A stretch of 64,000 nucleotides of DNA from Planctomycetota bacterium. GTDB taxonomy: Bacteria; Planctomycetota; UBA11346. Positions 4,455-47,266 of the stretch are shown in pieces (position 1 is the stretch's first letter; each line of letters opens with the position of its first letter). The position numbers were made by a program, and so were the translations under genes. Under the pieces are notes generated by a model. It searched no databases. It was not told where the DNA came from and worked only from the letters and a program-made list of their open reading frames with translations. The stretch is taken from contig JBBQSO010000020.1 of the NCBI GenBank assembly GCA_038213805.1, positions 1-64,000 on the forward strand, in the 5' to 3' direction.

Positions 4455-4907
4455 ATGACCGCGCACCTGCGCGACATCCGCGTGCGCTACGCCGAGACCG
4501 ATCAGATGGGCGTGGCGCACCACGCCGCCTACGTGGTGTGGTTCGAGGAGTGCCGCATCGAGCTGATGCGCGCGCGCGGCGCCGACTACCGCGAGCAGGA
4601 GCGTCAGGGCGTGCGCATGCCGGTGATCGAACTGACGGTGCGCTACCGCCGCCCGCTGCGCTTCGACGATGTCGCGAGCTGCGCCACCACGGTCGCGGTC
4701 AAGGGGCCCAGCCGCCTCGCCTTCCGCACCGTGGTCAGCCTGGGCGCGACGGTGTGCGCCGAGGCCGAGGTCACCGTCGCCGCCACCGGGGCGGATGGCC
4801 GGCCGGTGCGCGTCCCGGAGGACGTTCTGCGCAGGATCGCGGATGATGCGCTGTCAGGGCCGTCGGGTCCGGAGGTCCGGAAGTCTGGAAGTCCGGAAGT
4901 CTCGTAG
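4455..4907 (+). CDS. Acyl-CoA thioesterase (YbgC/4HBT hot-dog family)
   Basis: RVRYAETDQMGVAHHAAY motif; ATG 4455 just after the nuoN stop. Confidence 0.88.
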   Translation: MTAHLRDIRVRYAETDQMGVAHHAAYVVWFEECRIELMRARGADYREQERQGVRMPVIELTVRYRRPLRFDDVASCATTVAVKGPSRLAFRTVVSLGATVCAEAEVTVAATGADGRPVRVPEDVLRRIADDALSGPSGPEVRKSGSPEVS

Positions 4908-5062
4908 GAGTGGGTCGATGCCGGTGGCGCGTGCGCGCCAAAGCGCGCGTCCCGTTCCGCGTCGCTGATGCGTCCCGTTCCTCGTCGCTGAGGAGTCGGG
5001 ATTCCCGAGCGGTCACTGGGCCAGGAGACTTCAGGACTACCGGACCCCCAGACTTCCGGACC
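4866..5062. repeat. Inverted pair of GTCCGGAA-type octamer arrays around a 121-nt spacer
   Basis: Left arm 4866-4903 (4 units + GTCTC); right arm 5025-5062 is the reverse-complement arrangement (4 units + GTCTC). Confidence 0.9.
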
Positions 5063-5336
5063 GCCCGCCAGCGATGGCGGGCACGATGTCGACGAGTTCG
5101 CCGTCCTTGAGCGCGGTGGCTTGGCCGTCGAGGAAGCGGATGTCCTCCTCGCCGACGAACACGTTGACGAAGCGCTTCAGCTTGCCGGCGTCGTCGCACA
5201 GGCGCGCCATGATGCCGGGATGGGCGGCCTCGAGCGCGGCCAGGGCCTGGTCGACCGTCGCCGCGGGGACCTCGATGGTCTCCTTGCCGGCGGTGAGGTT
5301 ACGCAGGACGCTGGGGATGCGGACGGTGACGGCCAT
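5037..5336 (-). CDS. MoaD/ThiS/CysO family ubiquitin-like sulfur carrier with 8-aa extension after GG
   Basis: MAVTVRIPSVLR, FVNVFVGEEDIRFLDG, IVPAIAGG; SD AGGAG upstream of ATG. Confidence 0.9.
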   Translation of the reverse strand: MAVTVRIPSVLRNLTAGKETIEVPAATVDQALAALEAAHPGIMARLCDDAGKLKRFVNVFVGEEDIRFLDGQATALKDGELVDIVPAIAGGRSGSLGVR

Positions 5337-5453
5337 GACGGGCTCCTGTGAGGCGCGGGGGGGCATGGTGCCGGGGGCGGCCCTTCGGGCAAGCCCGGGC
5401 CGGGGTCCACTCGGCAGGCTTCTCGCCCGCCTGGAAGCCGCTAGGCTGCGGCC

Positions 5454-6155
5454 ATGAACGCCGATGCCGAACTGGTGATGGGCAGCATGTTCGCCGTGGT
5501 CGGCGGCCTGCTGCTGTTCGCCCTGGTGCCGCTGCTCGGGGTGGCGGTGGTGCGCTGGCTGCGCCTGCCGCAGGACCCGCCCGACGCCCTGCGCCTGGAT
5601 CCCCCGCCCCCGGGCGTGCGCCCGCCCGGGGCGCCAGAGGCGGCGCGCGCCATCGCCGCCGGTCAGGCACGCCTGGCCGCGCTCTACCACCGCACCTACG
5701 CCATCCTGCGCCTCGCCCAGTCGTGCGGCGACGCGCTGGCCGGCGTCGAGCTGCAGCTGGCCGCGGTGCCGCCCCCGGCCACTGCCGCGGCGGTGGACCG
5801 TCTGCGCGCCGCCGCGGTGACCGCGAGCGCGGCCAGTGCGGCCGCGCAGGAGGTGCTGCGGCCCATCGACCTGGCGCTGCGCCCGGATGGCATCCCGCGC
5901 CAGCCCGGTACGGTCGCAGTGGCGGTGCCCGCGTCAGCGGCGACAGCTCCCGCCCTGGCTGAGGACGCCCTCGCCGCCGCCGCGCGCAGCCTCGCCGATC
6001 ATGAGGTCGCAGCGCAAGGGGCCTATGCCGCCGCCGAGGCGGCACTGGTCGAGCTGCCCGACCTGCACGGCCGTCGTCGCCTGTATCTCTTGCTCGGGGT
6101 GGCGCTGTTCATGGCGCTGTGGTTCGTGGCGATGTCCATCCTGATGCGGCGCTGA
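5454..6155 (+). CDS. Hypothetical membrane protein (N- and C-terminal TM helices, Ala-rich helical middle)
   Basis: Hydrophobic termini; lies 7 nt upstream of radC. Confidence 0.7.
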   Translation: MNADAELVMGSMFAVVGGLLLFALVPLLGVAVVRWLRLPQDPPDALRLDPPPPGVRPPGAPEAARAIAAGQARLAALYHRTYAILRLAQSCGDALAGVELQLAAVPPPATAAAVDRLRAAAVTASAASAAAQEVLRPIDLALRPDGIPRQPGTVAVAVPASAATAPALAEDALAAAARSLADHEVAAQGAYAAAEAALVELPDLHGRRRLYLLLGVALFMALWFVAMSILMRR

Positions 6156-6162
6156 AGCGGCC

Positions 6163-7107
6163 ATGGCGCTCGCGCTCGAGGATGCCCTGCGCCTGCAGCC
6201 CGCCTCCGCCACGCGCTTCCTGCGCGCCGCTCTCGGCCTCGCCGCGCCCTCGCCGGCGGAGCTCGCCGAGGCCGGCGTGCCGCATTACGAGGCCACGCTC
6301 TTCTGCCGCCGCCTGACCGGTGCCGGCGAACTCGTCGGCGATGGTTGGAGCGTGGCGGCGCGCACTGGCTACGCCGCGCTGCTCGCCCGCCAGGGCGCGG
6401 ACGCCCGTCCGCAGCAGCGCCTGGCGCGCCTCAGCGACGAGGAACGCCCACGCGAGAAGGCGCTGCGCTCCGGCTTCGCCGCGCTCGGCGATGGCGAGTT
6501 GCTGGCGCTGCTGCTGCGCACCGGTTCCGGCGACGAGGGCGTGCTCGAATTCGCCGACCGCCTGCTCATCGACCATGACGGTCTGGTCGGCCTGTCGCGC
6601 CTCGATCTTGCTGCGCTCATGGAGGAGGGTGGCCTTGGTCCAGCGCGCGCTACTGAGCTGGCCGCCGCATTCGAACTCGCCGCGCGCCTGGCGCGCTCCG
6701 CCCGGCGCCGCGACCGCCCACGCCTGCGCACGCCCGAGGAGGTCGTGCAGTACCTGCAGGGCGAACTCGTGCGCCTCGCCCACGAGGAGTTCTGGTGTCT
6801 CGCGCTCGACGCCCGTGGTGGTCTGATCGGCGAGCCGCGCGTGGTCAGCAAGGGCGACGTCGACGGCACCGAGGCCGGCCCGCGCGCGTTCTTCCGCCTC
6901 GCTCTCGCCGCCGGCGCGAGCAGCTGCCTGGCGGTGCACAACCATCCCAGCGGCGACCCCGAACCCTCGGCCGCCGACCGCGCCATCACCCGGCGTCTGG
7001 CGGAATGCGGGCGGCTGCTCGACCTGCCGCTCAATGATCACCTGATCTGCGGCGATGGCGGACGCTTCGTGAGCCTGCGGCGGCAGTGCCCAGAGTGCTT
7101 TCGCTGA
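6163..7107 (+). CDS. radC: RadC/UPF0758 JAB-domain protein with N-terminal extension
   Basis: ERPREKAL, ELLALLLRTG, HEEF, HNHPSGDPEPSAAD, DHLI. Confidence 0.9.
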   Translation: MALALEDALRLQPASATRFLRAALGLAAPSPAELAEAGVPHYEATLFCRRLTGAGELVGDGWSVAARTGYAALLARQGADARPQQRLARLSDEERPREKALRSGFAALGDGELLALLLRTGSGDEGVLEFADRLLIDHDGLVGLSRLDLAALMEEGGLGPARATELAAAFELAARLARSARRRDRPRLRTPEEVVQYLQGELVRLAHEEFWCLALDARGGLIGEPRVVSKGDVDGTEAGPRAFFRLALAAGASSCLAVHNHPSGDPEPSAADRAITRRLAECGRLLDLPLNDHLICGDGGRFVSLRRQCPECFR

Positions 7108-7110
7108 AAG

Positions 7111-7130
7111 AGCAGTGCGCCTGCACTGCT
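7111..7130. terminator. Hairpin just after radC stop
   Basis: AGCAGTGC-gcct-GCACTGCT; no clear U-tract. Confidence 0.35.
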
Positions 7131-7324
7131 GCAGCGACGCGACACTTGGAACATTCCTCCGCGCCAGGGTCGCTGCTCAGCCTGCGCCCAGAGGCGACCG
7201 TGGGCGTGTCGGCGAGTCCCGTTGCCGAGCTTCCAGGAAAGCCCCGGAGGACCTTGCCGTCCCCTCGACGACCGTGCTCACGTCCGCCCCATCCCTGCGC
7301 GCGCTCTCCAGCCCGCGCGGGATC

Positions 7325-8392
7325 TCAGGCCTTGGCGCGTTTGTAGAATGGCAGGGAGCAGACTTGCGCGGCGCAGCGCGTGCCGCGCACGTCGATTTCC
7401 AGAGCGGTGCCGATCGCCGCCAGGGCGGTGGGCACGTAGCCCATGCCGATCGCCACCCCCAGGGTCGGCGACAGCGTACCGCTGGTGACGACGCCGACCG
7501 CAGCGCCGCCGGACAGCACTGCATAGCCATGCCTGGGCACGCGCTTCTCGGCCATGGTCAGGCCGACCAGCCGCCGGGACGGCCCGCGCGCGAGCTGCTC
7601 GAGCACCACGCGGTCGCCGATGAAACCGCCCTGCTTGTCGACGGCGAAGGCCAATCCGGCCTCGACCGGGGTCACGCTGCGGTCGAGCTCGTTACCATAG
7701 AGCGGCATGCCGGCCTCCAGGCGCAGGGTGTCGCGGCAGCCCAGGCCGCAGGGCTCGGCGCCGGCTGCCACCAGCGCCAGCCAAAAAGCTTCGGCGCGGT
7801 CATTGGCCAGGAAGCATTCGAAGCCGTCCTCACCGGTGTACCCGGTGCGGCTGAGGCGCACCGGCGTCCCCTGCCAGACGGCATCCAGGAAGCTGTAATA
7901 ACGCTCGGACCGGCCGTCGAGACCCATGCCGGCCAGCAGCGCTGCGGCCTGCGGTCCTTGCACCGCGATCATCGCCTCGGCGGCGGACAGGTCGGCGATG
8001 GCCACCCCGGGCTCGGCCTGCCACAGGGCGAGGATGGCGTCCTTGTTGCTCGCATTGACCACCACGTGGAAGGACTCGGGGCCCTCACGGCTGACCAGGA
8101 CGTCGTCCACCACCGTGCCGTCCTCGGCCAGGACCAGGCCGTAGCGTACCCCACCCGGGGCGAGGTCGGACAGCCGGCGGCAGACCCGGTGGCTGAGGTA
8201 GGCGAGGGCCTTGGCGCCGCTGACGCGCAGGCGGCCCATGTGCCCCAGATCGAAGACGCCGACCCGGCTGCGCACCACCTGGTGCTCGGCGGTGATGCCC
8301 TGGAATTGGACGGGCATGTCCCAGCCGTGGAAGTCGACGAACTTGCCGCCGCGGGCCTGCTGGCAGGCCCAGAGTCCGGTGCGATGTGCCAT
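7325..8392 (-). CDS. gcvT: Glycine cleavage system aminomethyltransferase T
   Basis: FHGWDMPVQF, FDLGHMG, SRTGYTGEDGFE, RDTLRLEAGMPLYGNEL. Confidence 0.95.
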   Translation of the reverse strand: MAHRTGLWACQQARGGKFVDFHGWDMPVQFQGITAEHQVVRSRVGVFDLGHMGRLRVSGAKALAYLSHRVCRRLSDLAPGGVRYGLVLAEDGTVVDDVLVSREGPESFHVVVNASNKDAILALWQAEPGVAIADLSAAEAMIAVQGPQAAALLAGMGLDGRSERYYSFLDAVWQGTPVRLSRTGYTGEDGFECFLANDRAEAFWLALVAAGAEPCGLGCRDTLRLEAGMPLYGNELDRSVTPVEAGLAFAVDKQGGFIGDRVVLEQLARGPSRRLVGLTMAEKRVPRHGYAVLSGGAAVGVVTSGTLSPTLGVAIGMGYVPTALAAIGTALEIDVRGTRCAAQVCSLPFYKRAKA

Positions 8393-8517
8393 CTCTTGTT
8401 TCTCCAACGGTTTCCCGTCATACTGATGGGACGAGCCCGGCAACAATCAGGTTGCGGACCCACGCGATGTACGTTCACTCGTTGGCACAGCAAGCTTTAG
8501 CGTCTGGCGGAGGTGGC

Positions 8518-14058: not shown

Positions 14059-14059
14059 G

Positions 14060-15952: not shown

Positions 15953-17377
15953 TCAGGCGCGGCCGAGGGCTTCCAGGCCCGCGGCAATGCGCAGCAGCCC
16001 GGCGTCCGCCCACTGCGCGGCCTGCAGCTGCATGCCGATCGGCAGGCCCTGCTCGTCGGCGCCGAACGGCACCGATATCGCCGGAACGCCGGCGAGGTTG
16101 GTGGCGATGGTGAAGATGTCCGAGAGGTACATCTGCAGCGGATCGCTGAGCTTCTCGCCGAGGCGGAAGGCAGTGGTCGGGCTGACCGGGCCGAGCAGCG
16201 CGTCGCACTGGGTGAAGGCGCGCTCATAGTCCTGCAGGATCAAGCGGCGAACCTGCTGGGCCTTGCGGTAGTACGCGTCGTAATAGCCGGTCGAGAGCAC
16301 GTAGGTGCCGAGCATGATGCGGCGCTTGGCCTCGCGACCGAAGCCTTCGGCGCGGCTCTGCGCGTAGAGCGTGTGCAGTGACTCGGGGTTGGCGGTGCGG
16401 TGGCCGAAGCGCACGCCGTCGAAGCGCGAGAGGTTGGAGGAGGCTTCGCCGGTGGCGAGCACGTAGTAGACGGCGATGGCGTAGCGCTCGTGTTTGAGTT
16501 CGACCGGCACCAGGGTGGCGCCAGCCTCGGCGAGGCGGCGCTTGGCAGTCTCGAGCTGGCGCGCGACCGCGGGCGCCAGGCCCTGGGCGTGCGCCGCGAC
16601 GTAGCCGATGCGCAACCCGGACAGCGAGCCGCCCTGGCCGGCGGCGGCGAGGCCGGCGGCGCTGCGCGCGGCGCTGGTGCTGTCGTTGGCGTCATGTCCG
16701 GCCATCGCCTCGAGGACCAGGGCGGTGTCGGCCACGTCGGTGGCGAGCGGGCCGATCTGGTCGAGGCTGGAGCCGAAGGCGATCAGCCCATAGCGGCTGA
16801 CGCGGCCATAGGTCGGCTTGAGCCCGACCACGCCGCACAGGCTGGCAGGCTGGCGGATCGAGCCGCCGGTGTCCGAACCCAGGCTGACCGGCACGATGCC
16901 CGCGGCGACCGCGGCGGCGCTGCCGCCCGAGCTGCCGCCGGGGATGCGCGTCGGGTCCTTGGGGTTGCGCACCGGCCCGTAGGCACTGGTCTCGTTCGAC
17001 GAGCCGAAGGCGAACTCGTCCATGTTGGTGGTCGCGACCACCACCGCGCCGGCCGCCTCGAGGCGCGCCACCGCGGTCGCGGTGTAGGGCGCGACGAAGC
17101 CCGTGAGGATCTTCGAGCAGGCGGTGGCCTCGACCCCGGTCAGACACAGGTTGTCCTTGATGGTGATGGGCACGCCGGCCAGCGGCAGGCGTTCGCCCGC
17201 CGCGATGCGCGCGTCGACGGCGGCGGCGGCGGCCTGGGCGCGCGCGCCGTGCACGCGGATGATGGCGTTGGTGGTGTCGGCGGCGGCGCGCGCCAGCGCG
17301 GCGTCGACGGCGGTGCGCGCACTGGTGCCGGCGTTGACGCTGGCGGCGATGGCGCGGGCGGTCTGGGGGCTGCTCAT
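15953..17377 (-). CDS. gatA: Glu/Asp-tRNA amidotransferase subunit A
   Basis: [44 protein letters not shown]. Confidence 0.96.
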
Positions 17378-17753: not shown

Positions 17754-17825
17754 GGGGCTTCTCCAGGGGCCGAAAGCCTAGGTCAGCACGGGAAATGTCT
17801 AGGCGGGGCCGGGGCGGCCCCGCCG

Positions 17826-17976
17826 GTCCGGTAGTCTGGAAGTCGGACGGCCAACGTGGCTCGCCGGCTGGTGCCGCGCCGCGGTTTCCCATCCCTGATC
17901 CCTCCATCAGGTTCGGCCCGGCCGCAACCCTGCGCTACGAGACTTCCGGACTTCCGGACCTCCGGACTTCCGGACC
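17826..17976. repeat. Inverted pair of GTCCGGAA-type octamer arrays around a ~91-nt spacer
   Basis: Left 17826-17847 (about 3 degenerate units); right 17939-17976 (GAGAC + 4 x TTCCGGAC-like), overlapping the ispD 3' end. Confidence 0.85.
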
Positions 17977-20739: not shown

Positions 20740-21275
20740 GGTGCGGGCTTCTCCGGGGCGGCGGGCTGGACGGCCCCGTGGGCGTAGCCATCGCGCTGTG
20801 CGGCGCTCAGCAGGTCGGCTTCGGCGCTCGTCGGCACCACGGCGAGACGCACCTCGCCAGCGGCGTCCGCGGTCCAGGTCCACGGCAACAGATCGCTGAC
20901 GACATCGACCGGAAAGCGTTGCCACCACGCCAGGGGCGTCTGCACGCGGGTCTCGCAGCGCGCCAGGCTGCCGTCGGCCTCACGGCGCCACGCGCTCACC
21001 GGTAGGTCGATGGGCAGCATGCTGGTGGCCGTCGTGGCCGGCGGGTCGACGGCGATGCGGCTGACGATGATCACCGTGGTCGCGGTCGGCTTGTCGCCGG
21101 GGTCGCCGACCGGGGCCGTCAGCGGCGGCTGGGCGGCCTCAATGCGTGCCCGGTGTTGGACGCAGCCGCACTGCAGCGCGCCTGCGCCGAGCACCATGAG
21201 CGCGCCCAGCAGCGCGGTCATGGGGACGCGCGAGCCTGGGACGGTGGAAGCTGAAGGGCGTGGACGGGGCGCCAT
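20736..21275 (-). CDS. Hypothetical probable lipoprotein
   Basis: Hydrophobic stretch ending LQCGC; operon context. Confidence 0.6.
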   Translation of the reverse strand: MAPRPRPSASTVPGSRVPMTALLGALMVLGAGALQCGCVQHRARIEAAQPPLTAPVGDPGDKPTATTVIIVSRIAVDPPATTATSMLPIDLPVSAWRREADGSLARCETRVQTPLAWWQRFPVDVVSDLLPWTWTADAAGEVRLAVVPTSAEADLLSAAQRDGYAHGAVQPAAPEKPAP

Positions 21276-22132: not shown

Positions 22133-22228
22133 GATCGTACTGTCCGCATGGCGGGCACTGCGGCAAGGGCAGGAAGGGGGGTGGGTGGGGGGTGTGGAGG
22201 GCTCGCTGGAGACGGATAAAATAGGAGG

Positions 22229-22358
22229 CGCGGAGACGCGGAGAACGGAGGAGGATGAAAAACGGCTGGGCAGGCTGCCAGAGCACCCGGCCTCGACGTC
22301 GCGGGTGCGCGTCTGACGGCACGTCAACATCTCCGCTGGTCTCCGCGTCTCCGCGTCT
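22229..22358. repeat. Inverted pair of CGCGGAGA octamer repeats around a ~80-nt spacer
   Basis: CGCGGAGA x2 at 22229-22244; TCTCCGCG x2 at 22340-22355, plus degenerate inner copies. Confidence 0.75.
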
Positions 22359-22362
22359 TGTT

Positions 22363-22701
22363 CTATCGGCTGTCAGGTCCGGGGCCGTCGTCCTGGGCAG
22401 GGGCGAGGGTGCGCAGGTTGGCGTACGTGAACAACCCGGCGTCGTGGCCGTCGGACCAGGTCACGCGCAGCGCGTAATTGCCGATGCGGTCGAGGTGCAC
22501 CGCGTGAATTCCGACGGGTACCGTGGCCGGGTCGAGCAGGGCGGCGCCGGTCATCTCATCGACGCAGTGCGCGCACGGGCAGCGCAGGCGCAGTGCGCGG
22601 GGTGCGTGGCGATCGACGCGATCGCGCCACGTGATGACGATGGCGCCGGCGTCGGCGGCGTCGGTGGCAAGCGTGGTCGGGATGGGGATGCGAGTGCGCA
22701 T
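22363..22701 (-). CDS. DUF971 / GBBH-like N-terminal domain protein
   Basis: LRLRCPCAHC, IGNYALRVTWSDGHDAGLFTYANL. Confidence 0.88.
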   Translation of the reverse strand: MRTRIPIPTTLATDAADAGAIVITWRDRVDRHAPRALRLRCPCAHCVDEMTGAALLDPATVPVGIHAVHLDRIGNYALRVTWSDGHDAGLFTYANLRTLAPAQDDGPGPDSR

Positions 22702-26170: not shown

Positions 26171-26420
26171 AGGCGCGAGGCACGAGACGCGAGGAGCGGC
26201 AAGAAAGCAGGCAATCAAGGAAGCGAGGAAGCGAGGACGGCAGAGGGCCAAAGGGAGAGGGAAGAAAGTGGATACGGGTCTGGAACCGGGAGTGGACCAG
26301 CATCCAGACCCATGGCGGTGGTCATCCGACTTTCTTCCCTACTGCTCTTCTGCCCTCCCCTCCACCCACGGCCTGTCCCCCCGAGTTCCCGAACCTGTAC
26401 CCTTTCCCCCCTTTCCTTCA
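26171..26420. repeat. Degenerate heptamer/octamer repeats with purine/pyrimidine inverted arms
   Basis: AGGCGCG-like x4, GCGAGGAA-like x5; AGGGAAGAAAGTGGAT (26258-26273) pairs with ATCCGACTTTCTTCCCT (26324-26340). Confidence 0.6.
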
Positions 26421-26634: not shown

Positions 26635-28507
<1,873 letters not shown>

Positions 28508-28512
<5 letters not shown>

Positions 28513-28784
28513 TGGCTGATGGCTGACAGCTGACAGCTCGCGGCGAGAAAAACGCCGCTTGCCTGCCGAACAAAGGCTTCGTTCCCATCATTGAAGAACG
28601 CACGCGACTCTGAGTCGCGTGCGTTTTTCATTGGTCGAAGGCCTGCCGTAAGATTTCGCCGATTACGTCACCCAGGGAAATTCCTACAGCTACCGGTCGC
28701 CTGGGCCGTCTGCCGCCAGCCGCCAGCCGCCAGCCGTTTGTCATCAGCCATCAGCCATCAGCCATCAGCCATCAGCCATCAGCC
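28508..28784. repeat. Inverted pair of GCTGATG/CCATCAG heptamer arrays
   Basis: Left GCTGATG x2 + GCTGACA x2 (28508-28538) contains the typA stop; right 11 in-phase heptamers 28706-28782 (CCGCCAG x3, CCATCAG x5, variants). Confidence 0.9.
28592..28630. terminator. Probable bidirectional intrinsic terminator
   Basis: AACGCACGCGAC-tctga-GTCGCGTGCGTT followed by T-run, between convergent genes. Confidence 0.8.
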
Positions 28785-30768: not shown

Positions 30769-30824
30769 GGCCGGCACGGTAGCGCCCGATCTGCGCGCGC
30801 CACTGGGCGACCTGTTGGAAGGTT

Positions 30825-30935
30825 CTAGACCCTAGACCCTAGGGACAGCCAGCTGCTTCCGGCGTGTGCCCTGAGATCCAATTCTTCAGCAATCACCGTG
30901 GTCACGCTCCCTAGGGTCTAGGGTCTAGGGTCTCG
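30825..30935. repeat. Inverted pair of CTAGACC heptamer arrays around a 62-nt spacer
   Basis: Perfect 21-bp inverted repeat CTAGACCCTAGACCCTAGGGA (30825-30845) / TCCCTAGGGTCTAGGGTCTAG (30908-30928). Confidence 0.92.
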
Positions 30936-31771
30936 TCCAACAGTTGTCCCATGACGGCGGTGTCCGCGCCCACGGTGGGGCCGATGTGCAGGGCGAGCGT
31001 CAGGTAGGTGCGTGCGGCGGCGGTCAAATCGGCGGGGGTACCGGCGGCGAAGGTGCGCTGGATGGCATCGGCGAGCCGCTGTCCGTGGGCGGCGACGAAG
31101 GCGACTGGATCGTCGATGAGCTCAGCGAGGGGCGGGGCGGTCAGCTGCTCGAGCCAGCCGGGCGGGACGCGGGCGGAGCGCTCCGCCGGGGGTAGCGCGA
31201 TGCCGGCCTGGAAGAACGCGGCGAGCGGTGCGGGGTCAAGTCGACCTTCGCGGCTGATGACCATGGCGGCCTGGACCATGCCGTAGGCGAGGCGGGCATA
31301 GGCGTCGTGGGCAAGCTCGCCGCTGGTCGGGTCCTGACCGGCCAGGTACTCGGCCACGGTCTGCACCGGCAGCGCCGTGACGGTCGGGCATAGGCGGATG
31401 CACGGCAGCTCGCCGTCAGGATGGAAGTAGCGGATCGCCCCCTCGTGGCGCTGCCGGCCGAGCGGGTAGAGCCGGCAGGCCAGCGGCCGGTCGGCGTGCA
31501 CCGTGCAGCCGCCCTCGGCGCGATAGAGCGAACAGGCGGGTTTATGGTGTGCGGGCGGTCCGAGCGTGCCGGACGGGCCGTTGAACAGCAGGCGCGTGCC
31601 GCCGCAGTCGGTGTAGCGCTCGCGGAATGCGCGCGGCGCCAGGCCCAGGCCGCGCGCCAAGCGGGCGAGCTCCCACGGGCTGATGAAGATCTGGTGGCCG
31701 TGGCAACAGGTCCCGAGCCGGGTGCAGGTCAGCGGTAGGCGGTCGGTGCCTTGGAGCGGGGTGAGGGTCAT
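30911..31771 (-). CDS. YkgJ family cysteine-cluster protein
   Basis: CTRLGTCC, CSLY, CTVHADRPLACRLYP. Confidence 0.85.
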   Translation of the reverse strand: MTLTPLQGTDRLPLTCTRLGTCCHGHQIFISPWELARLARGLGLAPRAFRERYTDCGGTRLLFNGPSGTLGPPAHHKPACSLYRAEGGCTVHADRPLACRLYPLGRQRHEGAIRYFHPDGELPCIRLCPTVTALPVQTVAEYLAGQDPTSGELAHDAYARLAYGMVQAAMVISREGRLDPAPLAAFFQAGIALPPAERSARVPPGWLEQLTAPPLAELIDDPVAFVAAHGQRLADAIQRTFAAGTPADLTAAARTYLTLALHIGPTVGADTAVMGQLLDETLDPRP

Positions 31772-31779: not shown

Positions 31780-32013
31780 GGGTGCGGGGTTGCGGGTGCG
31801 GGGTGTGGAGTCCGGATTCGACGGCACCGTGGCAAGGACGCCATGGGCATGTTTACATCGCGCGGGCAAATCACGTTAACCAGCGTGGCGCCTGTCCACC
31901 ACCAGCAACCGGGGTCACGCGCGAAGCTGGACCTTGAGCCCACGATCGTCCCCGGCTATCGTCTCCAGCCCCGCACTCGGCACTCGGCACTCGGCACCTC
32001 ACGCCCCGCACGT
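31780..32013. repeat. Inverted pair of GRGTGCS heptamer arrays around a ~150-nt spacer
   Basis: GGGTGCG-like x4 (31780-31807) versus (C/G)GCACTC x3 plus degenerate units (31965-32013). Confidence 0.7.
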
Positions 32014-32033: not shown

Positions 32034-33056
32034 ATGTCCGCACCCATCCGCTGGGGCATCCTCGGCCTCGGCGCTATCGCCCGGAAGTTTGCCATCGGCC
32101 TGCAGGCGGTTCCGGACGCCAGACTGGCCGCGGTGGGCTCGCGCAGTCTCGACAAGGCCCAGGCCTTCGCCGCCGAGTTTGGCGGCGCGCGCGCGCATGG
32201 CAGCTATGAAGCGCTCGCTGCCGATCCGGAGGTCGATGCGATCTATATCGGCACCCCGCATCCCATGCACCGTGCCGATGCGATCCTCTGCCTGCGTGCG
32301 AAGAAGGCCGTGCTGTGCGAGAAGCCGTTCACGGTGAACGCTGCCGAGCTCGAGGAAGTGGTGGCGGTGGCGCGCGCCGAGCGCGTCTTCCTGATGGAAG
32401 CGATGTGGACGCGCTTCCTGCCGGCGATGGGACGGGTGCGCGAGTGGCTGGCCGCCGGCGCGATCGGCGAACCGCGCATGGTCACCGCTGATTTCGGCTT
32501 TCGCGCGGAGTGGAATCCGGACAGCCGCCTGTTGGATCCCAAGCTCGCCGGTGGTGGTCTGCTCGACGTCGGCATCTATCCGATCGCGGCGGCGGCGATG
32601 GTCTTCGGGCCCAATCCCGCGCGCATCACCGGACTCGCCCACCTCGGCGTCACCGGCGTCGACGAGCAGGCCGCGATGGTGCTCGCGTATCCGCAGGGCC
32701 AGCTCGCCGTGCTGTCCTGTGGCGTGCGCACCGAGACCACCCATGCCCTGCGCATCGACGGCACCGCTGGGCGCATCACCGTGCCTCATTTCTGGCGCGC
32801 AGATCGCGCGATCCTGACGGCCGGGGACCGCACCGAGGACGTGCAGCTCGGCCACCAGGGCGGAAACGGCTACAACTTCGAGGCCGCGGAGGTCGGCCGC
32901 TGCCTGCGCGCCGGGCAGACCGAGAGCGCGGTCGTCACCCTCGACGAATCGCTGGCGCTGATGCGCATCCTCGACGAGTTGCGGCGGCAGTTCGGGCTGC
33001 GGTATCCGATGGAGACCAGTCCGGAAGTCCGGAAGTCCGGAAGTCCGGAAGTCTGA
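32034..33056 (+). CDS. Gfo/Idh/MocA family oxidoreductase
   Basis: RWGILGLGAIA, VLCEKP, LMEAMWTRF, GGGLLDVGIY. Confidence 0.93.
   Translation: MSAPIRWGILGLGAIARKFAIGLQAVPDARLAAVGSRSLDKAQAFAAEFGGARAHGSYEALAADPEVDAIYIGTPHPMHRADAILCLRAKKAVLCEKPFTVNAAELEEVVAVARAERVFLMEAMWTRFLPAMGRVREWLAAGAIGEPRMVTADFGFRAEWNPDSRLLDPKLAGGGLLDVGIYPIAAAAMVFGPNPARITGLAHLGVTGVDEQAAMVLAYPQGQLAVLSCGVRTETTHALRIDGTAGRITVPHFWRADRAILTAGDRTEDVQLGHQGGNGYNFEAAEVGRCLRAGQTESAVVTLDESLALMRILDELRRQFGLRYPMETSPEVRKSGSPEV
33019..33056 (+). repeat. GTCCGGAA x4 perfect tandem array ending in the stop codon
   Basis: 33019-33050 then GTCTGA; no convincing partner arm. Confidence 0.9.
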
Positions 33057-33858: not shown

Positions 33859-34011
33859 ACGCAGAGTGCTCAGGGGGGCACTAGGCCGCAGAGGACGGCC
33901 GGGGAGGGCGGGTTCTTGCCGCGGCGCCCTGGCCATGCCAGGGCAAAGTCTTCGAATGCGGCAAGGTTCGCCTCTGCGGTCTCAGGCTCTCCTCCGCGGC
34001 GCACTCTGCGT
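33859..34011. repeat. Nested CGCAGAG/CTCTGCG inverted-repeat element
   Basis: ACGCAGAGTGC (33859-33869)/GCACTCTGCGT (34001-34011) and CCGCAGAGG (33886-33894)/CCTCTGCGG (33971-33979). Confidence 0.8.
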
Positions 34012-34058: not shown

Positions 34059-36683
<2,625 letters not shown>

Positions 36684-39632: not shown

Positions 39633-39916
39633 GACGTTCCTTTCGCCTGAAGCAGGCAGAAACCGGGTGATTGCGCGCAGTTTTCGAAAGCGGCGCGTAG
39701 CGTCGATTCGTACACAATGGTGCTTTGGCCGCCAGATCAAACCCCAAGTCTGACAAATCCTTATACAGACCTTTACCACTCCTTCCCGGGCGTGGCAGGC
39801 TCGCCTAACGCGCCGCTTCCCCCTTGTCTTGGGCGCACATCCCCCATGATGCCTCTCCCTCACGGAGCGGCCGCACAGGCCGGCTCCCCCCATATATTCG
39901 CCTCGCGGAGCTCTCC

Positions 39917-42016: not shown

Positions 42017-42043
42017 GACCGGTTTCCAGCTGAAGGCTGACAC

Positions 42044-42068
42044 CACCCCCGGGCTACGCCTGGGGGTG
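42044..42068 (+). terminator. Hairpin after fusA
   Basis: CACCCCCGGGC-tac-GCCTGGGGGTG with weak T-tail. Confidence 0.55.
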
Positions 42069-42345
42069 ATGTGTTTGGCGGCGCCTTACCGCTGCGGCCG
42101 GTCACGGTGTGCCGTTCATCCATGGCGATCCTTCTTCGGCACGCTCGCGACGAAGGGTCGACCCGAAGTGCCGCAGGAGCTGAGATCGGAAGACGCAACG
42201 GGTGGGGGCGGCAGTCGACCCGACAACCGGTGTCATGCAGCCGCGACCCATCTGTCCCTTGGAGCTGCGCAGAATCCACTGCGGCGTCCGGGTGATCCGT
42301 GACCTCGCGTTGACACCCCGGCGCGCCGCCTACAAGCCACCGACC

Positions 42346-43614
42346 ATGTCAGACGCAGCCACCTTGTCAGCTCCTGCCGCCCAGGACCAGCGCTCCACCT
42401 GGGCCTGTCTGTTCAGTGCGCCGGTGCTGATTGCGGCGCTGGGTTACTTCGTCGACATCTACGACCTGGTGCTGTTCAGCATCGTCCGGATCCCCAGCCT
42501 CAAGGATCTCGGGCTCAGCGGCGAAGCTCTCACCAGTGTTGGTCTGCACCTGATGAACATGCAGATGATCGGCATGCTGATCGGCGGCATCCTGTGGGGC
42601 GTCATCGGCGACCGGCGCGGCCGCATCACCACGCTGCTTGGTTCGATCCTGCTCTATTCTCTGGCCAACATCCTCAACGGCATGGTCGGGACGGTCGAGC
42701 AGTACGCGGTGCTGCGCCTGCTCGCCGGCATTGGCCTGGCCGGCGAGCTGGGCGCCGGCATCACCCTGGTGGTCGAGAGCCTGCCGCGCGGCAAGCGCGG
42801 GTACGGGACGATGATGGTGTCGGCGGTCGGTGTCTCGGGCGCGGTAGTAGCGTATTTCGTCAGCCTCGCGGACTGGCGCGAGTCCTACTACATCGGCGGC
42901 GGCATGGGCCTGGCTCTGCTGGTCCTGCGCCTGGTTGCGCACGAGTCCGGGATGTTCGCGCGCCTGAAAACCTCGGGTGTGGGCGATGGCATCGCCCGCG
43001 GCAACGTCTTCGCCCTGTTCACCAGCCGCAGCCGCTGTGCGCGCTTCTTCACCTGCGTCGCGATCGGTTTGCCGCTGTGGTACGTCGTCGGCATATTGGT
43101 GATGCTGTCCCCAGAACTGGGCAGGGCCCTGAGTGTGACCGGCGAGATCAGCGGCGGCAAGGCGGTGATGCTGACCTACGTCGGTCTGGTCGTGGGCGAC
43201 TTCGCCAGCGGCCTGGTCAGCCAGTGGTGGCGCAGCCGCAAGCGTGCCGTCGCGCTCTTCATGGCGTTGACTGCGGGGACTTCGGCAGCCTATTTCGCGT
43301 TCCGCGGCGCCAGCCCGGAGGCCTTCTACGCGTTGATGATGGTGCTGGGCGTGTTCGTCGGCTACTGGGCGCTGTTCGTGACCATCGGCGCCGAGCAGTT
43401 CGGTACCAACCTGCGCGCCACCGTCGCCACCAGTGTGCCCAACGTCGTGCGCGGTGCGCTGGTGCCGATGGCCCTGCTCTTCCAGGCTGGCAAGGGTACG
43501 CTCGGGACTCTCGGCGCGGCAGCAGCGGTTGGCGCAGTGGTGTTCGCCATCGCTGCGGTCGCCCTGGTGTTCCTGCGCGAGACCTTCAACGCGGACCTCG
43601 ACTACGTCGAGTAG
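42346..43614 (+). CDS. MFS transporter
   Basis: GVIGDRRGR motif A, LRLLAGIGLAGELGA, about 12 TMs. Confidence 0.92.
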   Translation: MSDAATLSAPAAQDQRSTWACLFSAPVLIAALGYFVDIYDLVLFSIVRIPSLKDLGLSGEALTSVGLHLMNMQMIGMLIGGILWGVIGDRRGRITTLLGSILLYSLANILNGMVGTVEQYAVLRLLAGIGLAGELGAGITLVVESLPRGKRGYGTMMVSAVGVSGAVVAYFVSLADWRESYYIGGGMGLALLVLRLVAHESGMFARLKTSGVGDGIARGNVFALFTSRSRCARFFTCVAIGLPLWYVVGILVMLSPELGRALSVTGEISGGKAVMLTYVGLVVGDFASGLVSQWWRSRKRAVALFMALTAGTSAAYFAFRGASPEAFYALMMVLGVFVGYWALFVTIGAEQFGTNLRATVATSVPNVVRGALVPMALLFQAGKGTLGTLGAAAAVGAVVFAIAAVALVFLRETFNADLDYVE

Positions 43615-43633
43615 GTCTGCCGTAGTGGGTGGT

Positions 43634-44047
43634 TTACTGCCCCGCGCTCCTGCGCAGCTCCGCCTCGGCCTTCAGAAATTCGTCGTAGTGGATGCTGTCC
43701 AGCCAATGGGCGATAGACGCGGGGCTGTCGCCGAGGGTGGCGAGCTGGCGCTTGGTGTCGGGTAGCTGGGCGCGGATGGCGGCGGCCTCGTCCAGGTTGG
43801 TCTTCACCGCCGGGCTGTCGGTGAGGCCGAGCGCCATGACCTCGCGCATGCTCTTGGTCTGGTTCATCAGACGCACCGCGAATTCCGACTGCGCCTTGAC
43901 CTTGAGGTCGAGGCTGATGGAACCGGTCACGGGATCGCCAACGGAGCTGGTCGTAGGCATGGCGACCGCCGCGCCGGCGCTGCTGCGCCAGATGACGATG
44001 GCGACCGTCGCCACGATGGCCAGGCCGAGCGCTGTGCTGATCTTCAT
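43634..44047 (-). CDS. Hypothetical exported/anchored protein
   Basis: N-terminal hydrophobic helix; SD GGAG. Confidence 0.6.
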   Translation of the reverse strand: MKISTALGLAIVATVAIVIWRSSAGAAVAMPTTSSVGDPVTGSISLDLKVKAQSEFAVRLMNQTKSMREVMALGLTDSPAVKTNLDEAAAIRAQLPDTKRQLATLGDSPASIAHWLDSIHYDEFLKAEAELRRSAGQ

Positions 44048-44301
44048 GGCGTGCTCCGCATGCGGTGCGCCTCCAGCCGGAAGGCTGTCGGCGGCCACAC
44101 CGGCAGTCTACCCCGGGATGGCGCCGCCGCGGCTGCCATCCCGGTGATCACGCGACGCAGGTGCTCTGCCGCGGCATCGAATCGGTCGCGGGCCTCTGCG
44201 ATCGGCTGCGCCAGGGTGGGCTTGCAGGGCGGTCCGGGAGCCTGTTGGCGCGTTGGCGCGCCGCGGGTTCCATTGGAAGGTTGCGCCATCTCCAGACGTC
44301 T

Positions 44302-44637
44302 TCAGCCCTTGCGCAGCGTCTCGTCGACCTGTCTTTCGGCCAGCAGCCAGTCATGGACCGGGTTGCCGCCGCTGAAGCCGCGCTTCTGGGCGATAAAGTA
44401 GGCGGCATCGCCGATGAGTTTGCGCCGCTCGTCGGCGCTGACCACCTTGGTACCCGCCTTGGCCGGGGCTTTCGCTGCCTGGGCTGCGGGAGCTGCTGCT
44501 GCCTTTGTCGCCGGGGCGATGGGGGCCACGGACTTCGCAACGGGTGCAGCTGCTGGTTTGGCTGCAGGGACGGCAGCGGCCGGCTTTGCCGCCGGTGCTG
44601 CGGTCTTTCCAGGGGTCGGTTTCGGGGTCGGTGCCAT
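44302..44637 (-). CDS. DUF2934 domain protein with Lys/Ala/Pro-rich N-terminus
   Basis: IGDAAYFIAQKRGF..G....DWLLAERQV. Confidence 0.85.
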   Translation of the reverse strand: MAPTPKPTPGKTAAPAAKPAAAVPAAKPAAAPVAKSVAPIAPATKAAAAPAAQAAKAPAKAGTKVVSADERRKLIGDAAYFIAQKRGFSGGNPVHDWLLAERQVDETLRKG

Positions 44638-44950
44638 GTGGATCTCCCAATGGAGTGAGCCTAAGCCCCCGCATCGGCTCTACAAGACCACGCGGACGTC
44701 ACGCCATTGTGCAATCCGCCGCCGGGTGCGACGCCCAGGCCTGGGGGATCGTGACTGGCACAGGCTGGGCCCGAGGCATGATTCAGGGCGATGCTTGAAA
44801 CCCGGTCCACCGCGTCGATAACCGCATGATCGTAGTGACACTACCCATTCCCTTGCAGGTGCGCATGTCCGTGGTTCGCAAGCAAAGCCCATCGCCCGCC
44901 TTCGCTGATGGGATCCGTGCCAGGTCGCATTATAGGTCCAAGGGGTGGCG

Positions 44951-45844
44951 ATGAGGCGCGTCCTGCTGGTGGAAGACGATGATGCGGTGCGCAGGGTGCT
45001 CGAGATCATCCTCACCCGCGCCGGCTGGGAAGTCGCGAGCGTCGGCGGCGTGGACGAGGCCGAGCGCAGCTTTGGGCTGGAGCCGACCGACGTGGTGCTC
45101 TCCGACCTGGTTATGCCTGGCAAGGGCGCGGTCGAGCTGCTCGTAAGTCTGCGCGAACACGACCCGCGCCTGGCCTTCGTGGTGATGTCGGGCCAGCTCA
45201 CCGACGAGCGTTTCCGCGCCCTGCTCCAGGACGGTGCCAGCGACTGTCTGGCCAAGCCCTGCGAAGCCGACCTGCTCAATCGCGCGCTTGAACGCGCGGT
45301 GCTGCTGCGCCGCAGTCTCGATGGTGCGGTCGGCGCGGATCAGCCGCCGTCGCTGGAGATGCCCGCCGACCTCGTCGAGCGCACGCGTCTGCTCGGGCGC
45401 GTCGACGAGGCCGCCCAGGCCGGTGGCTTTGACCTGCGCCGCAACCGCATCCTGCTCGCCCTCGACGAAGCCTTCACCAACGCGGTCAAGCACGGCGCGC
45501 GCGGCGACCGCAACCGCAGCATCGTCGTCACCGCCTCGTTCACCGTGCACGGCGGCGTGGTCACGGTCAGCGATCCGGGCCCGGGCTTCGATGCCGGGAT
45601 GGCCACCCTCGAGCGCGACCGCGCGCTGAGCCGGCGCGGCATGCACCTCATCCGCACCGCCTGTGACGACGTACGCTGGATCGGTCGCGGCAATGTCTGC
45701 CAGATGGTCTTCCGCCAGCCACCGCCCGAGGAGCTGATGGCCGCACAGCGTGCCCGCCAGGCACGCAGCGAGCGACGCCGCGCGAAGCGCATGGCCTCGT
45801 CGACGACGCTGCGTCCGCCGGTGGCCGGCCCGGGACCCGTCTGA
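44951..45844 (+). CDS. Receiver domain + RsbW-like HATPase_c protein
   Basis: LLVEDD, SDLVMPG, LAKP; ALDEAFTNAVKHG, DPGPGFD, RGMHLI; alternative start GTG 44945. Confidence 0.85.
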   Translation: MRRVLLVEDDDAVRRVLEIILTRAGWEVASVGGVDEAERSFGLEPTDVVLSDLVMPGKGAVELLVSLREHDPRLAFVVMSGQLTDERFRALLQDGASDCLAKPCEADLLNRALERAVLLRRSLDGAVGADQPPSLEMPADLVERTRLLGRVDEAAQAGGFDLRRNRILLALDEAFTNAVKHGARGDRNRSIVVTASFTVHGGVVTVSDPGPGFDAGMATLERDRALSRRGMHLIRTACDDVRWIGRGNVCQMVFRQPPPEELMAAQRARQARSERRRAKRMASSTTLRPPVAGPGPV

Positions 45845-45851
45845 GCGCGCC

Positions 45852-47033
45852 ATGGCGGTGAGCCGCGCCTTCCTGCGCGAGTTTCTCGACGAGTCGGAGC
45901 GCCACCTGCTCAGCGTCGAGGGTGCGGTGCGCGCCATCTCCGGTCAGCCCTACCGCGAGGAGCCGCTGCACGAGGCCTTCCGTGCCATCCACGCCTTCAC
46001 CGGCGGCGCCTGCTTCCTCGGCCTCGAGCGTCCGCACCGCCTGGCGCGCGCCGTCGAGTCGGCGCTCGATGCCCTGCGCGTGCGCAGCCTGGCCTGCACC
46101 GCGGAGCAGTCCGGGCGGCTGTTCGATGCGCTCGCGCGGCTGCGCGTGCTGCTCGCCGCGCAGCGCGGAGAGGGCGCGGTACCGGGCGACGACGAGGAGC
46201 AGATCGCCGCGCTGCGTACCGCCGTCAACCTCGCCCTTGCGCAGTCCGACGACTACCGGCCGAGCACCTCGACGGTGGTGCGCCTGATCAAGGCCGAGAT
46301 CGCGCCCGCCAGCGACGTTTTCGCTCCCGACGTGCCCGACGAGCCCGGCAAGCCCGCGCTCGAGCCGCGCATCGTCACCAGCGCGCGCTTCAACCAGGCA
46401 GCCCTCGCCGCCATCGACCGCCTGGTCGCGACCCTGCCTGGCGACTGGCACGAGATCGGCAAGCAGCTGCGCGAACTGGGTCGCCACGCCGCCGCCTGGC
46501 CGACCGCCGCATGCGACCGTCTGGTGGCGATGCGCCGCTTCGGCGACCGCCTCGAGACCGGCCATCCGGAGGCGGCAGAGGCCTACGCGCACATCGTCCT
46601 CCAGGCCGAAGGGCTGCGTGCCATCCTCGCACCGGCGGCAACCGCCGCAGCGCCAACCGCCCCGCGAGCGGTACCAGTGGCTGGCGAGGCGGCCGCGGCT
46701 GACCTCGACCCCGACACCCTGTCCTTCTGCCGCGAGGCTACCGACCTGCTCGGAGCCATCGAGTCGGTGGTGAACAAGCCGGGACGATTTGATGATGACG
46801 GCATCGAGGCCGTGGTGCAGGCGTTCCGCGCGCTCGGAGAAACCGCCGCCCGCCTGCACATGCCGTGGGTGGAGAACGTCGCCCGTCGCCTGGAGCGTGA
46901 CCTCGAACAGCGCCACGGTTCGGCCTCGACGTCGCCGGCCACGCAGCGCGTCCTGGCGACGGCCGGGGTGGACGCGCTGCGCGTGCTGATCCGGCGGGTG
47001 CGGGGACAGGGGCGGGGGGCGGGGAGGCGGTAG
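45852..47033 (+). CDS. Hpt-domain protein (CheA-P1-like N-terminus, degenerate second Hpt)
   Basis: EFLDESERHL..FRAIHAFTGGACFLGL..ESALDALR. Confidence 0.75.
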   Translation: MAVSRAFLREFLDESERHLLSVEGAVRAISGQPYREEPLHEAFRAIHAFTGGACFLGLERPHRLARAVESALDALRVRSLACTAEQSGRLFDALARLRVLLAAQRGEGAVPGDDEEQIAALRTAVNLALAQSDDYRPSTSTVVRLIKAEIAPASDVFAPDVPDEPGKPALEPRIVTSARFNQAALAAIDRLVATLPGDWHEIGKQLRELGRHAAAWPTAACDRLVAMRRFGDRLETGHPEAAEAYAHIVLQAEGLRAILAPAATAAAPTAPRAVPVAGEAAAADLDPDTLSFCREATDLLGAIESVVNKPGRFDDDGIEAVVQAFRALGETAARLHMPWVENVARRLERDLEQRHGSASTSPATQRVLATAGVDALRVLIRRVRGQGRGAGRR

Positions 47034-47266
47034 ACTCTAGACGCTAGACCCTAGACCCTAGACCCTAGACCCTAGACCCTAGACCCTAGACCCTAGACCC
47101 TAGACCCTAGACCCTAGACCCTAGACCCTAGACCCTAGACCCTAGATCCTAGATCCTAGATCCTAGATCCTAGATCCTAGAGAGGTGTAACGGGTCATGA
47201 GCAGAGGATGGCGATGATGCGTCATCACTTGGTCAGGCGATCTAGGGTCTAGGGTCCCAGTTCCCA
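47031..47266. repeat. (TAGACCC)n heptamer array of 21 units with inverted partner arm
   Basis: TAGACTC, TAGACGC, TAGACCC x14, TAGATCC x5 (47031-47177); inverted GATCTAG GGTCTAG GGTCCCA GTTCCCA at 47239-47266. Confidence 0.97.

Follow-up and report, generated by a model that had tools for sequence, protein, structure and literature searches.

Why do arrays of unrelated 7- or 8-nt units stand, again and again, in mirror-image pairs around a short piece of unique DNA? The question is raised by the first 64,000 nt of contig JBBQSO010000020.1 from a Planctomycetota bacterium (assembly GCA_038213805.1), hereafter the window, in which an interpretation made from the letters alone (the sequence-only reading) had noted a recurring architecture of inverted tandem-repeat arms and unique spacers with interchangeable units. 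The window belongs to contig C20 of a 5.5-Mb draft genome (G000; 180 contigs, 69% G+C, 90% complete). Window arrays were called with Tandem Repeats Finder (TRF) and by direct reading, and the complementarity of the arms was aligned separately. Arrays of 7- or 8-nt units are present at every site listed in that interpretation, and the architecture it described extends through the whole genome.

The ten elements of the window are best explained as copies, without a gene, of a small fold-back (hairpin-ended) cassette, and the genome contains about 280 cassettes of this kind; that they are such copies and work as proposed below is given a probability of roughly 0.55. The element is little studied and selfish-looking, and when full it carries one of two small genes.

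Inverted pairing and fixed polarity of the arms

In a typical cassette, 50-100 nt of unique DNA lie between two mirror-image arms, each about 20-35 nt long, with the same strand always directed inward. With 3 copies and a 90% match as the minimum, G000 contains 416 arrays of period 7, 142 of period 8, 19 of period 9 and 2 of period 10; the scan for pairs kept 1952 arrays of period 5-9. Neighbours with the same unit lying 10-500 nt apart form 205 inverted and 12 direct pairs, the inverted ones being separated by a median gap of 85 nt that falls within 50-99 nt in 124 of the 205. When the nearest same-unit partner lies less than 250 nt away, the arrangement is inverted in 194 cases and direct in 9 (binomial p 2e-46), and in each 250-nt bin beyond this distance the two arrangements are about equally frequent. 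Families hold 13-61 pairs that share their arms.

Among adjacent arrays of period 7 or 8, 134 exact-family pairs are inverted and 4 direct, as against 9.7 ± 3.0 inverted pairs, with a maximum of 23, in 2000 shuffles of the labels. Each unit family keeps one fixed polarity, to which all 134 exact pairs conform; none is reversed in families of 49, 41, 18, 12, 9 and 3 pairs. The polarity also predicts the side on which a worn partner lies. For 203 solo-looking arrays of the five main families (34 near contig ends excluded; score of at least 12), a decayed inverted partner is found on the predicted side in 86 and on the other side in none. Together, the 194 clean cassettes and the 86 with a decayed partner arm give the total of about 280.

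Small genes enclosed by the arms

Filled copies were found by widening the gap allowed between the arms, and their proteins were searched against Pfam and NCBIfam. On contig C19 (5907-6407), GCTGATG arms surround the gene of a protein of 117 aa with matches to PF05635 (E 6e-36) and TIGR02436. On C28 (58982-59496), GGAGGCGC / TCTCCGCG arms surround the gene of a protein of 129 aa with matches to PF13366 (E 3.5e-37) and TIGR04256, the GxxExxY family. PF05635 and PF13366 are large protein families, and we know of no function established for either. G000 contains one PF13366 match and five PF05635 matches (C19, C29, C115, C6 and C9), of which the one at C29 26284-26776 (a short match) is bracketed by inverted GTCCGGAA arms and that on C115 (11837-12145) by inverted GCTTCTC / GAGAAGC arms. 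The C6, C9 and C115 genes have a common upstream stretch with a promoter-like TTGACG...ACAAT and, judged by this motif, seem to bring their own promoter.

The survey of this association covered 41 genomes from the same taxonomic family. Of these, 26 contain PF05635, in up to 19 copies, and flanking inverted repeats reach a score of at least 13 at 37 of 69 testable genes, 31 of these having a period of 7 or 8; direct repeats reach that score at 9 of the 69. PF13366 occurs in 20 genomes, and inverted repeats flank 28 of the 29 genes that could be tested, the arms being built from purine-rich 8-10-nt units such as CGCAGAGG, AACGGAGG and CGCGGAGA. Among 400 random small genes of the cassette-rich G000 taken as a control, 45 reach the inverted score and periodic arms are present at 5, among them the C19 gene itself (Fisher p 3e-24 and 5e-23 for cargo loci against control). 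The remark, in the sequence-only reading, that similar repeats flank four-helix-bundle and GxxExxY genes in other bacteria is borne out both in G000 and in its relatives.

Two further small genes were considered and set aside. One, from the control (C53, 31040-31504), is an ordinary gene between neighbouring cassettes. The other, an open reading frame (ORF) of 132 aa by a GTCCGGAA cassette (C13, 41962-42593), stands between two right-type arms and was not counted as cargo; it has no Pfam or NCBIfam family, and in the Atlas it falls into a 57-member Planctomycetota cluster with weak Hfq/LSm-like leads (0.85).

The full copies define two classes. Class A carries a four-helix-bundle gene of PF05635, the family named '23S rRNA intervening-sequence protein', between arms that are pure tandem arrays, with units including GTCCGGAA, GCTGATG, CTAGACC, GCGGAGT and GRGTGCS. 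Class B carries a PF13366 GxxExxY gene of the PD-(D/E)XK type; its CGCGGAGA/CGCAGAG arms are rich in purines and have GATARAAC as an outer flank. Among the window elements, those with GTCCGGAA, GCTGATG, CTAGACC and GRGTGCS arms belong to the PF05635 type, and 22215-22367 and 33859-34011 to the GxxExxY type.

Proteins and arms vary together. The five PF05635 proteins of G000 are mutually 30-40% identical, except for the C6/C9 pair at 69%, and each array-bracketed gene has a different arm unit. Across 31 loci, the median PF05635 identity is 77.5% for the 12 pairs that share an arm unit and 40.7% for the 409 pairs with different units, pairs that are not phylogenetically independent; the most similar proteins with different units have related units. 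One relative (G007) contains five dispersed PF05635 copies that are 76-92% identical, all between GCCGAAY arms. This co-variation and the dispersed copies show that gene and arms multiply as a unit.

The arm families are spread unevenly among genomes. GTCCGGAA arms occur in 11 of the 41 genomes and 6 of 18 genera, with either dozens to hundreds of matches or none; the two orientations are about equally frequent, and the reversed control pattern gives zero. Three successive copies of GCTGATG are found 811 times in G000, 84 times in G010, 15 times in G003, once in G002 and not at all in 17 other genomes searched, and three copies of GCTGRCG 34 times in G000 and 36 times in G003. The control pattern, three copies of GCTGRCG read backwards, gives 45 matches, all in G002, which seems to have an abundant heptamer family of its own.

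Arm module and spacer

The arms have the character of defined modules. Those of the GTCCGGAA family measure 35 nt in the median (interquartile range 30-36), and the inner end stops in a common phase (...CGGAAGTC) in 67 of 116 arms, the following bases being hardly conserved. Arms of the CGCGGAGA family contain additional non-repetitive parts, namely an outer GATAAAACAGGAG / CTTGTTCTATC flank and an inner CGGAGGAGGA.

The spacers show no such kinship, as the sequence-only reading had stated. When 188 of them were compared with the genome by BLASTN, 13 had any non-self match, and all of these were nested repeats or local duplications. The same interpretation had taken the sites for possibly collapsed copies of a mobile cassette; this is not supported by the 188 short spacers, in which tblastn with six cargo proteins found no cargo-gene remnant (best E 0.04). 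Spacers as long decayed palindromes were likewise ruled out, their centred pairing being that of controls. The G+C content of the spacers is 65.1%, compared with 65.5% in array-free intergenic DNA, and their mirror skew is slight (+0.06 and -0.06). Structured spacers (z below -2) are somewhat more frequent than in controls (18% vs 7%, p 0.03). For 100 cassettes in tandem gene context, the whole cassette folds at a mean of about -90 kcal/mol.

Position relative to genes

Gene calls based on codon usage gave 4060 genes covering 87% of the genome. Of the 194 clean cassettes, 102 lie between tandem, 50 between convergent and 21 between divergent genes, with 11 inside calls and 10 at contig edges. 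Compared with the background of 2043 intergenic regions of at least 100 nt (1128 tandem, 333 convergent, 582 divergent), convergent positions are enriched (50/173 vs 333/2043) and divergent positions depleted (21/173 vs 582/2043).

The distance from a facing stop codon to the arm has a median of 8 nt and is at most 5 nt in 40% of cases, whereas from the arm to a facing start codon the median is 65 nt. In 40 of 59 and 39 of 57 cases, an arm of the two largest families either overlaps the stop codon or lies no more than 10 nt away. True solo arms behave alike: the outer side points toward a stop codon in 67 of 90, at a median of 5 nt, and the inner side faces stops and starts equally, more than 110 nt away. 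The bias to gene 3' ends may result from targeting, or from purifying selection in compact intergenic DNA that needs room for a promoter and a ribosome site. The sequence-only reading had argued that termination alone does not explain sites lying between convergent, tandem and divergent genes; the argument is fair as far as it goes, but it overlooked this strong bias.

Turnover between sister genomes

Genes of the relatives G003 and G010 are about 84-96% identical to those of the window. The three closest genomes are about equidistant (94.4, 93.6 and 94.4% identity), leaving no outgroup by which to tell gains from losses. Twenty-seven sites were compared, with a syntenic counterpart in G003 at 25 and in G010 at 14. 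In G003, 5 of the 25 are empty, with 7-22 nt between the aligned flanks, 2 contain a homologous spacer, and the rest are unrelated, often holding a cassette of another family. In G010, 3 of the 14 are empty or reduced to a remnant, and the others range from the same cassette to one of another family. The presence/absence polymorphism between relatives that the sequence-only reading had proposed to look for is thus found in both, and turnover is rapid. At C3 28865, the three genomes hold GCTGATG-, AGACGCC- and GCGGAGT-type cassettes, respectively, with unrelated spacers. Contigs of four sequencing runs contributed one G010-like allele, a join of 30770 to 30911 in run X3, but no information at strain level.

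Two sites on C65 reveal how parts of a cassette change. At 21115, the arms are identical in G000 and G010 and the spacer is inverted: read in reverse it agrees at 49 of 65 positions (z 9.1), read forward at 39 of 65; such a flip shows recombination between the arms. At 17234, a conserved spacer with a terminator-like hairpin lies between GCTGATG / CATCAGC arms in G000, and in G003 and G010 all units of both arms are GCTGACG / CGTCAGC. A concerted, genome-wide switch of this kind points to conversion between arms and between loci, or replacement by a newly successful variant.

Elements of the window

The coordinates of the ten window elements are collected in Table 1. Four sites have clean pairs of arms (22224-22244 with 22339-22358, 28507-28538 with 28742-28784, 30825-30842 with 30911-30933, and 47031-47181 with 47241-47256). 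The decayed arms of the 4866 and 17820 sites are 82-85% complementary to their partners. The weakest site is 26171-26420.

Table 1. Repeat-arm elements of the window, with arm units, spacers and state in relatives
Position	Class	Left arm or end	Spacer	Right arm or end	Context and further features
4866-5062	A, gene-less	GTCCGGAA, 4866-4903; TRF array 4867-4901, 4.4 copies of GTCCGGAA	4904-5024	decayed, 5025-5062; 38 nt, 82% complementary	between convergent genes 4455-4907(+) and 5037-5366(-), both stop codons in or at the arms
17820-17976	A, gene-less	decayed GTCCGGWA, 17820-17844	17845-17940	17941-17976; TRF array 17941-17975, 4.4 copies of GACTTCCG	
22215-22367	B, gene-less	22215-22255: GATAAAATAGGAG, CGCGGAGA units, CGGAGGAGGA		22330-22367: TCTCCGCG units, CTTGTTCTATC	clean CGCGGAGA pair, 22224-22244 with 22339-22358; arm type as at the GxxExxY gene on C28
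26171-26420	decayed, cassette-like	purine-rich half (AGGCGCG and AGGAAGCG arrays)		pyrimidine-rich half	best inverted matches 12 nt perfect and 20 nt at 70%; stretch kept in G010, different in G003
28507-28784	A, gene-less	GCTGATG/GCTGACA, 28507-28538	173 nt, with terminator-like hairpin	28712-28784: GCCGCCA, 3.6 copies, and CATCAGC, 6.1 copies (28742-28784)	flanking genes convergent
30825-30933	A, gene-less	CTAGACC, 30825-30842	68 nt, 30843-30910	CTAGGGT, 30911-30933	stop codon of gene 30911-31771(-) within right arm; cassette absent in G003; right-arm remnant alone in G010 and in run X3 contig
31780-32011	A-like	GGGTGCG-type, 31780-31816	conserved in G010, partly in G003	GCACTCG/GCACCCC-type, 31973-32011	divergent promoter region; arms an imperfect complement, 76% over 21 nt; G003 arms built from another unit
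33018-33053 (+)	solo left-type arm	AGTCCGGA, 4.5 copies			
33859-34011	B (CGCAGAG type), gene-less	33859-33894		33971-34011	ends 74-83% complementary inverted repeats, no clean tandem array; absent in G010, with GGCTC once there and twice in the window; different cassette of the same CGCAGAG type in G003
47031-47256	A, gene-less, very unequal arms	(TAGACCC), 21.6 copies, 47031-47181	59 nt	(TCTAGGG), 2.3 copies, 47241-47256	CTAGACC / GGTCTAG pair

The solo arm at 33018 had not been listed by the sequence-only reading. Gene 32034-33056(+) reads through this GTCCGGAA arm and meets its stop codon right after it, so that about a dozen residues are added to the tail of the protein. The copy numbers at 47031-47256 demonstrate that the arms of one cassette can differ greatly in length; the expanded left arm ends with a block of five CTAGATC variants. 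Within the spacer of the 4866-5062 cassette, a 23-nt unit is repeated twice at 95% match (4947-4991). Just past the end of the window, at C20 64089-64186, a pair of the purine-rich class, GAGGAACG / TTCCTCCG, encloses a 55-nt spacer. A short motif, GGACAGCC / GGCTGTC(C), is met repeatedly just within or next to the arms of various families (30843-30850 and 22369-22375, and also in G003 and G010) and may be a further variant of the GCTGNNG group of units or a separate signal.

Proposed mechanism and alternative explanations

In the proposed mechanism, the arms would be the sole cis-acting part of the element, kept by a DNA-level process, namely gene conversion between the arms of a cassette and between loci. 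The cognate small protein probably acts on the arms, with a hairpin or cruciform as the likely intermediate, and gene-less copies would be mobile as well. The middle would be free to drift, flip or be lost. Cassettes would settle directly behind stop codons or between the genes of an operon, where a co-transcribed cassette would fold into a stem of about 30 bp, like an intervening sequence (IVS) of ribosomal RNA (rRNA) that RNase III can cut, and would thereby cause little harm. Processing of the co-transcribed hairpin by RNase III can reasonably be inferred, because the IVS of Coxiella burnetii is alike, with a stem of 28 bp and a PF05635 ORF in its loop. G000 contains an RNase III gene. This gene (C15, 73861-74208) lies between two CTAGACC cassettes (72393-72519 and 74516-74683), which may be coincidence.

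A more specific form of this explanation is tentative and, in our estimate, more probably wrong than right: the PF05635 and GxxExxY proteins would serve as the cognate factors that recognise the arms in two classes of a mobile element of a so far unrecognised type, which moves, flips and is rewritten via a hairpin or cruciform. The arms would then be arrays of protein-binding units copied and converted genome-wide, and the middle whatever DNA becomes enclosed. The species-wide switch from GCTGACG to GCTGATG would be explained in this way. If true, the same model would account for the bacterial excess of 7-nt repeats, the origin of the IVS and the function of two very large protein families.

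Several observations weigh against mobile fold-back cassettes of the proposed kind. The PF05635 genes at C6 60284-60598 and C9 20929-21243 lie without clear inverted arms, and neither cargo protein, PF05635 or PF13366, is a known transposase. At the level of genomes, the tie between the presence of cargo and the abundance of arms lacks specificity, cross-tests (p 0.02 and 0.07) being no less significant than matched tests (0.018 and 0.009), and array density does not follow PF05635 copy number (rho 0.13, p 0.59) in an underpowered set of 20 genomes with at most 40 kb each and many short contigs. BLASTN against the genome found no second copy for the 188 spacers, whose best-hit scores are the same within as between families (p 0.84, 0.20 and 0.30). 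In the 100 tandem-context cassettes, the sense fold is the more stable in 52 and the antisense fold in 48 (p 0.29), giving no direct sign of selection at the RNA level. No convincing target-site duplication and no clean junction was seen at the seven empty sites in G003 or G010, where flanks diverged by about 6-10% blur the junctions; at the window 33859 site, with flanks of the same divergence, GGCTC stands on both sides. The intergenic DNA of the relatives at empty sites is shorter than the spacer, so that the spacer is not local DNA. Judged from these sequences, copy-and-paste of gene-less cassettes would require all copies to be older than the detection horizon, neutral divergence being already about 25% between the closest genomes. 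Either all copies are that old, or the middle is captured or made anew.

The strongest competitor, which we consider unlikely without dismissing it, is that the pairs serve the host as 3'-end structures (bidirectional terminators, insulators or mRNA-stabilising hairpins), with arrays arising and being reshaped in place by slippage and inter-arm conversion and the small genes being secondary lodgers that exploit the hairpin loops. The median of 8 nt to the stop codon, the convergent enrichment and divergent depletion, the ordinary intergenic composition of the spacers with their somewhat commoner stable hairpins, and the folding energy of whole cassettes all agree with such a role, as do the arms changed around a conserved spacer at C65 17234 and at 31780 in the window. 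Independent growth in place could hardly yield identical, fixed-phase 35-nt modules at about 100 loci, however, and a family that reaches hundreds of copies in sister genomes is absent from some congeners; in syntenic DNA, G004 has about 3 arrays per 100 kb and G000 56. Cassettes moreover split adjacent operon genes that are spaced 22-36 nt apart in relatives, with spacer DNA that is new and not local, and the arms around 28 of 29 GxxExxY genes make gene and arms look like one unit. A host function explains the position and the convergent bias; it leaves the sameness of the modules, the patchiness of their distribution and the link to cargo unaccounted for.

The remaining alternatives account for far less. 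Healed breaks, in which telomerase-like templated addition would extend both 3' ends with repeats before their joining with filler DNA, are very improbable. Telomeric repeats resemble the cassette units in length, the polarity is strict, with the G-rich strand running 5' to 3' toward the centre in most families (GTCCGGAA, GCTGATG, CGCGGAGA, GCGGAGT), and the spacers are unique and have no genomic source. The CTAGACC skew is opposite, however, arm length and inner phase are fixed and not open-ended, class B arms have non-repetitive outer and inner parts, cargo genes co-vary with arms, and the genome, 90% complete, gave no match to RVT_1; the templated repeat addition suggested by the sequence-only reading therefore finds no footing here. 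Ordinary repetitive extragenic palindromic (REP) sequences, whether in bacterial interspersed mosaic elements (BIMEs) or in REP doublets forming hairpins (REPINs), mobilised by REP-associated tyrosine transposases (RAYTs, Y1), have an even slighter chance. In favour, the cassettes are extragenic, near 3' ends, arranged as inverted doublets and present in hundreds of copies, and the genome does contain Y1_Tnp genes (5 matches, 4 over the curated cut-off). Against this, conventional REP palindromes, and no heptamer arrays, surround the four Y1 genes examined, each cassette arm is a tandem array instead of a single imperfect palindrome of about 20-40 nt, and the genes between arms are PF05635 and PF13366, not Y1. 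Chance neighbourhood of independently arising microsatellites retains practically no probability. Heptamer arrays are abundant in G000, and some adjacency is expected; the excess of inverted over direct same-unit neighbours, the exact-family pairs far above the shuffled expectation, the uniform polarity and the one-sided decayed partners already refute it, in keeping with the sequence-only reading, which had treated the sites as products of one mechanism.

Flipping, concerted rewriting of arms and replacement can be read directly from sister genomes. About 280 polar cassettes and two classes of cargo and arms make it testable whether the protein binds or cuts its own arms and whether cassettes move.

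Comparison with known systems

Two other systems were rejected. The cassettes are not clustered regularly interspaced short palindromic repeat (CRISPR) arrays, their repeats being inverted, in single pairs and dispersed, and not 25-40-nt direct repeats with alternating spacers. Nor do they belong to a diversity-generating retroelement: no RVT_1 is found, and the four-helix protein scores 27.5 bits against a cut-off of 80 for the Avd model.

REP, BIME and REPIN elements are likewise short extragenic hairpin-forming repeats near 3' ends, with inverted doublets, a variable middle and a cognate gene within its own repeats. In the cassettes, by contrast, the cognate genes are PF05635 and PF13366 and not Y1, the arms are tandem arrays and the spacers are dissimilar; none of the four Y1 genes examined among the 5 Y1_Tnp matches has a period-7/8 array within 600 nt. 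Two Y1 (RAYT/IS200-like) genes, C48 21166-21507 and C97 14408-14752, are flanked by REP-type palindromes and form a second, separate repeat system. Miniature transposable elements with inverted repeats (MITEs) share with the cassettes the terminal inverted repeats, small size, many gene-less and few gene-carrying copies, and presence/absence polymorphism. They differ in that cassette interiors are not homologous, no clear target-site duplication is seen at the blurred junctions and no known transposase is involved, the gene-carrying copies encoding PF05635 or PF13366 instead of a transposase.

Filamentous cyanobacteria have short tandemly repeated repetitive (STRR) heptanucleotide arrays, in which, as here, heptamers in tandem occupy intergenic DNA. 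For Nostoc, only few inverted heptamer pairs are reported, and the text of that report available to us describes no link to a cargo gene (Rehm et al., PMC4692102). Another counterpart is found in Xanthomonas, where two genomes contain 70 and 75 convergent pairs of the heptamer GGGAATC (Rehm et al. 2015, PLoS One, PMC4692102), the excess of heptamers in many bacterial genomes having been known since 2007 and left unexplained, as cited there. In both cases, tandem heptamers occur between genes in tens to hundreds of copies, often as two arrays of one unit that converge from opposite strands a short distance apart; in Xanthomonas, the repeat type is usually preserved between related species and the array lengths differ (PMC4692102). 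The Xanthomonas pairs consist of one G-rich unit treated as a quadruplex former, and the available text of that paper gives no cargo, polarity rule, stop-codon position, turnover or mechanism. The cassettes described here, unlike these, occur in a Planctomycetota genome and use several unrelated units, some of them unable to form quadruplexes. The suggestion of an undescribed system, made in the sequence-only reading, is thus right in part, convergent heptamer pairs being on record already, though with neither cargo nor mechanism. New, as far as we have seen, are the genome-wide count, the polarity without exception, the fixed arm module, the position of pairs and solo arms at stop codons, the two cargo-defined classes, the protein-arm co-variation, the flipped spacer and the species-wide unit switch. 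No paper linking PF05635 or GxxExxY genes to repeat-array arms outside rRNA was found in a search that did not extend to subscription journals.

The full copies resemble the IVS in the 23S rRNA of Coxiella burnetii, which contains the S23p gene and whose 28-bp stem is cut by RNase III (Warrier et al. 2016, PMC4990558). In both, a gene of the PF05635 family lies in the loop of a stem formed by terminal inverted repeats, of 28 bp in Coxiella and with arms of about 31-35 nt here; this arrangement is confined to full copies, on C19, C29 and C115 and, in relatives, at 31-37 of 69 loci. Both count as selfish elements of uncertain mobility, and where the rRNA intervening sequences come from is a long-standing question (PMC4990558). 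Cutting by RNase III is demonstrated for the Coxiella IVS, whereas for the cassettes it is only presumed. The cassettes differ from the IVS in their location within mRNA spacers behind protein genes, in their tandem-array arms and in being mostly gene-less; the ten window elements and the cassettes examined elsewhere lie at or between protein genes and not in a 23S rRNA helix, rRNA genes being outside this comparison. In conclusion, G000 provides a compact, countable case in which the heptamer excess, the function of PF05635 and PF13366 and the origin of the IVS are joined.

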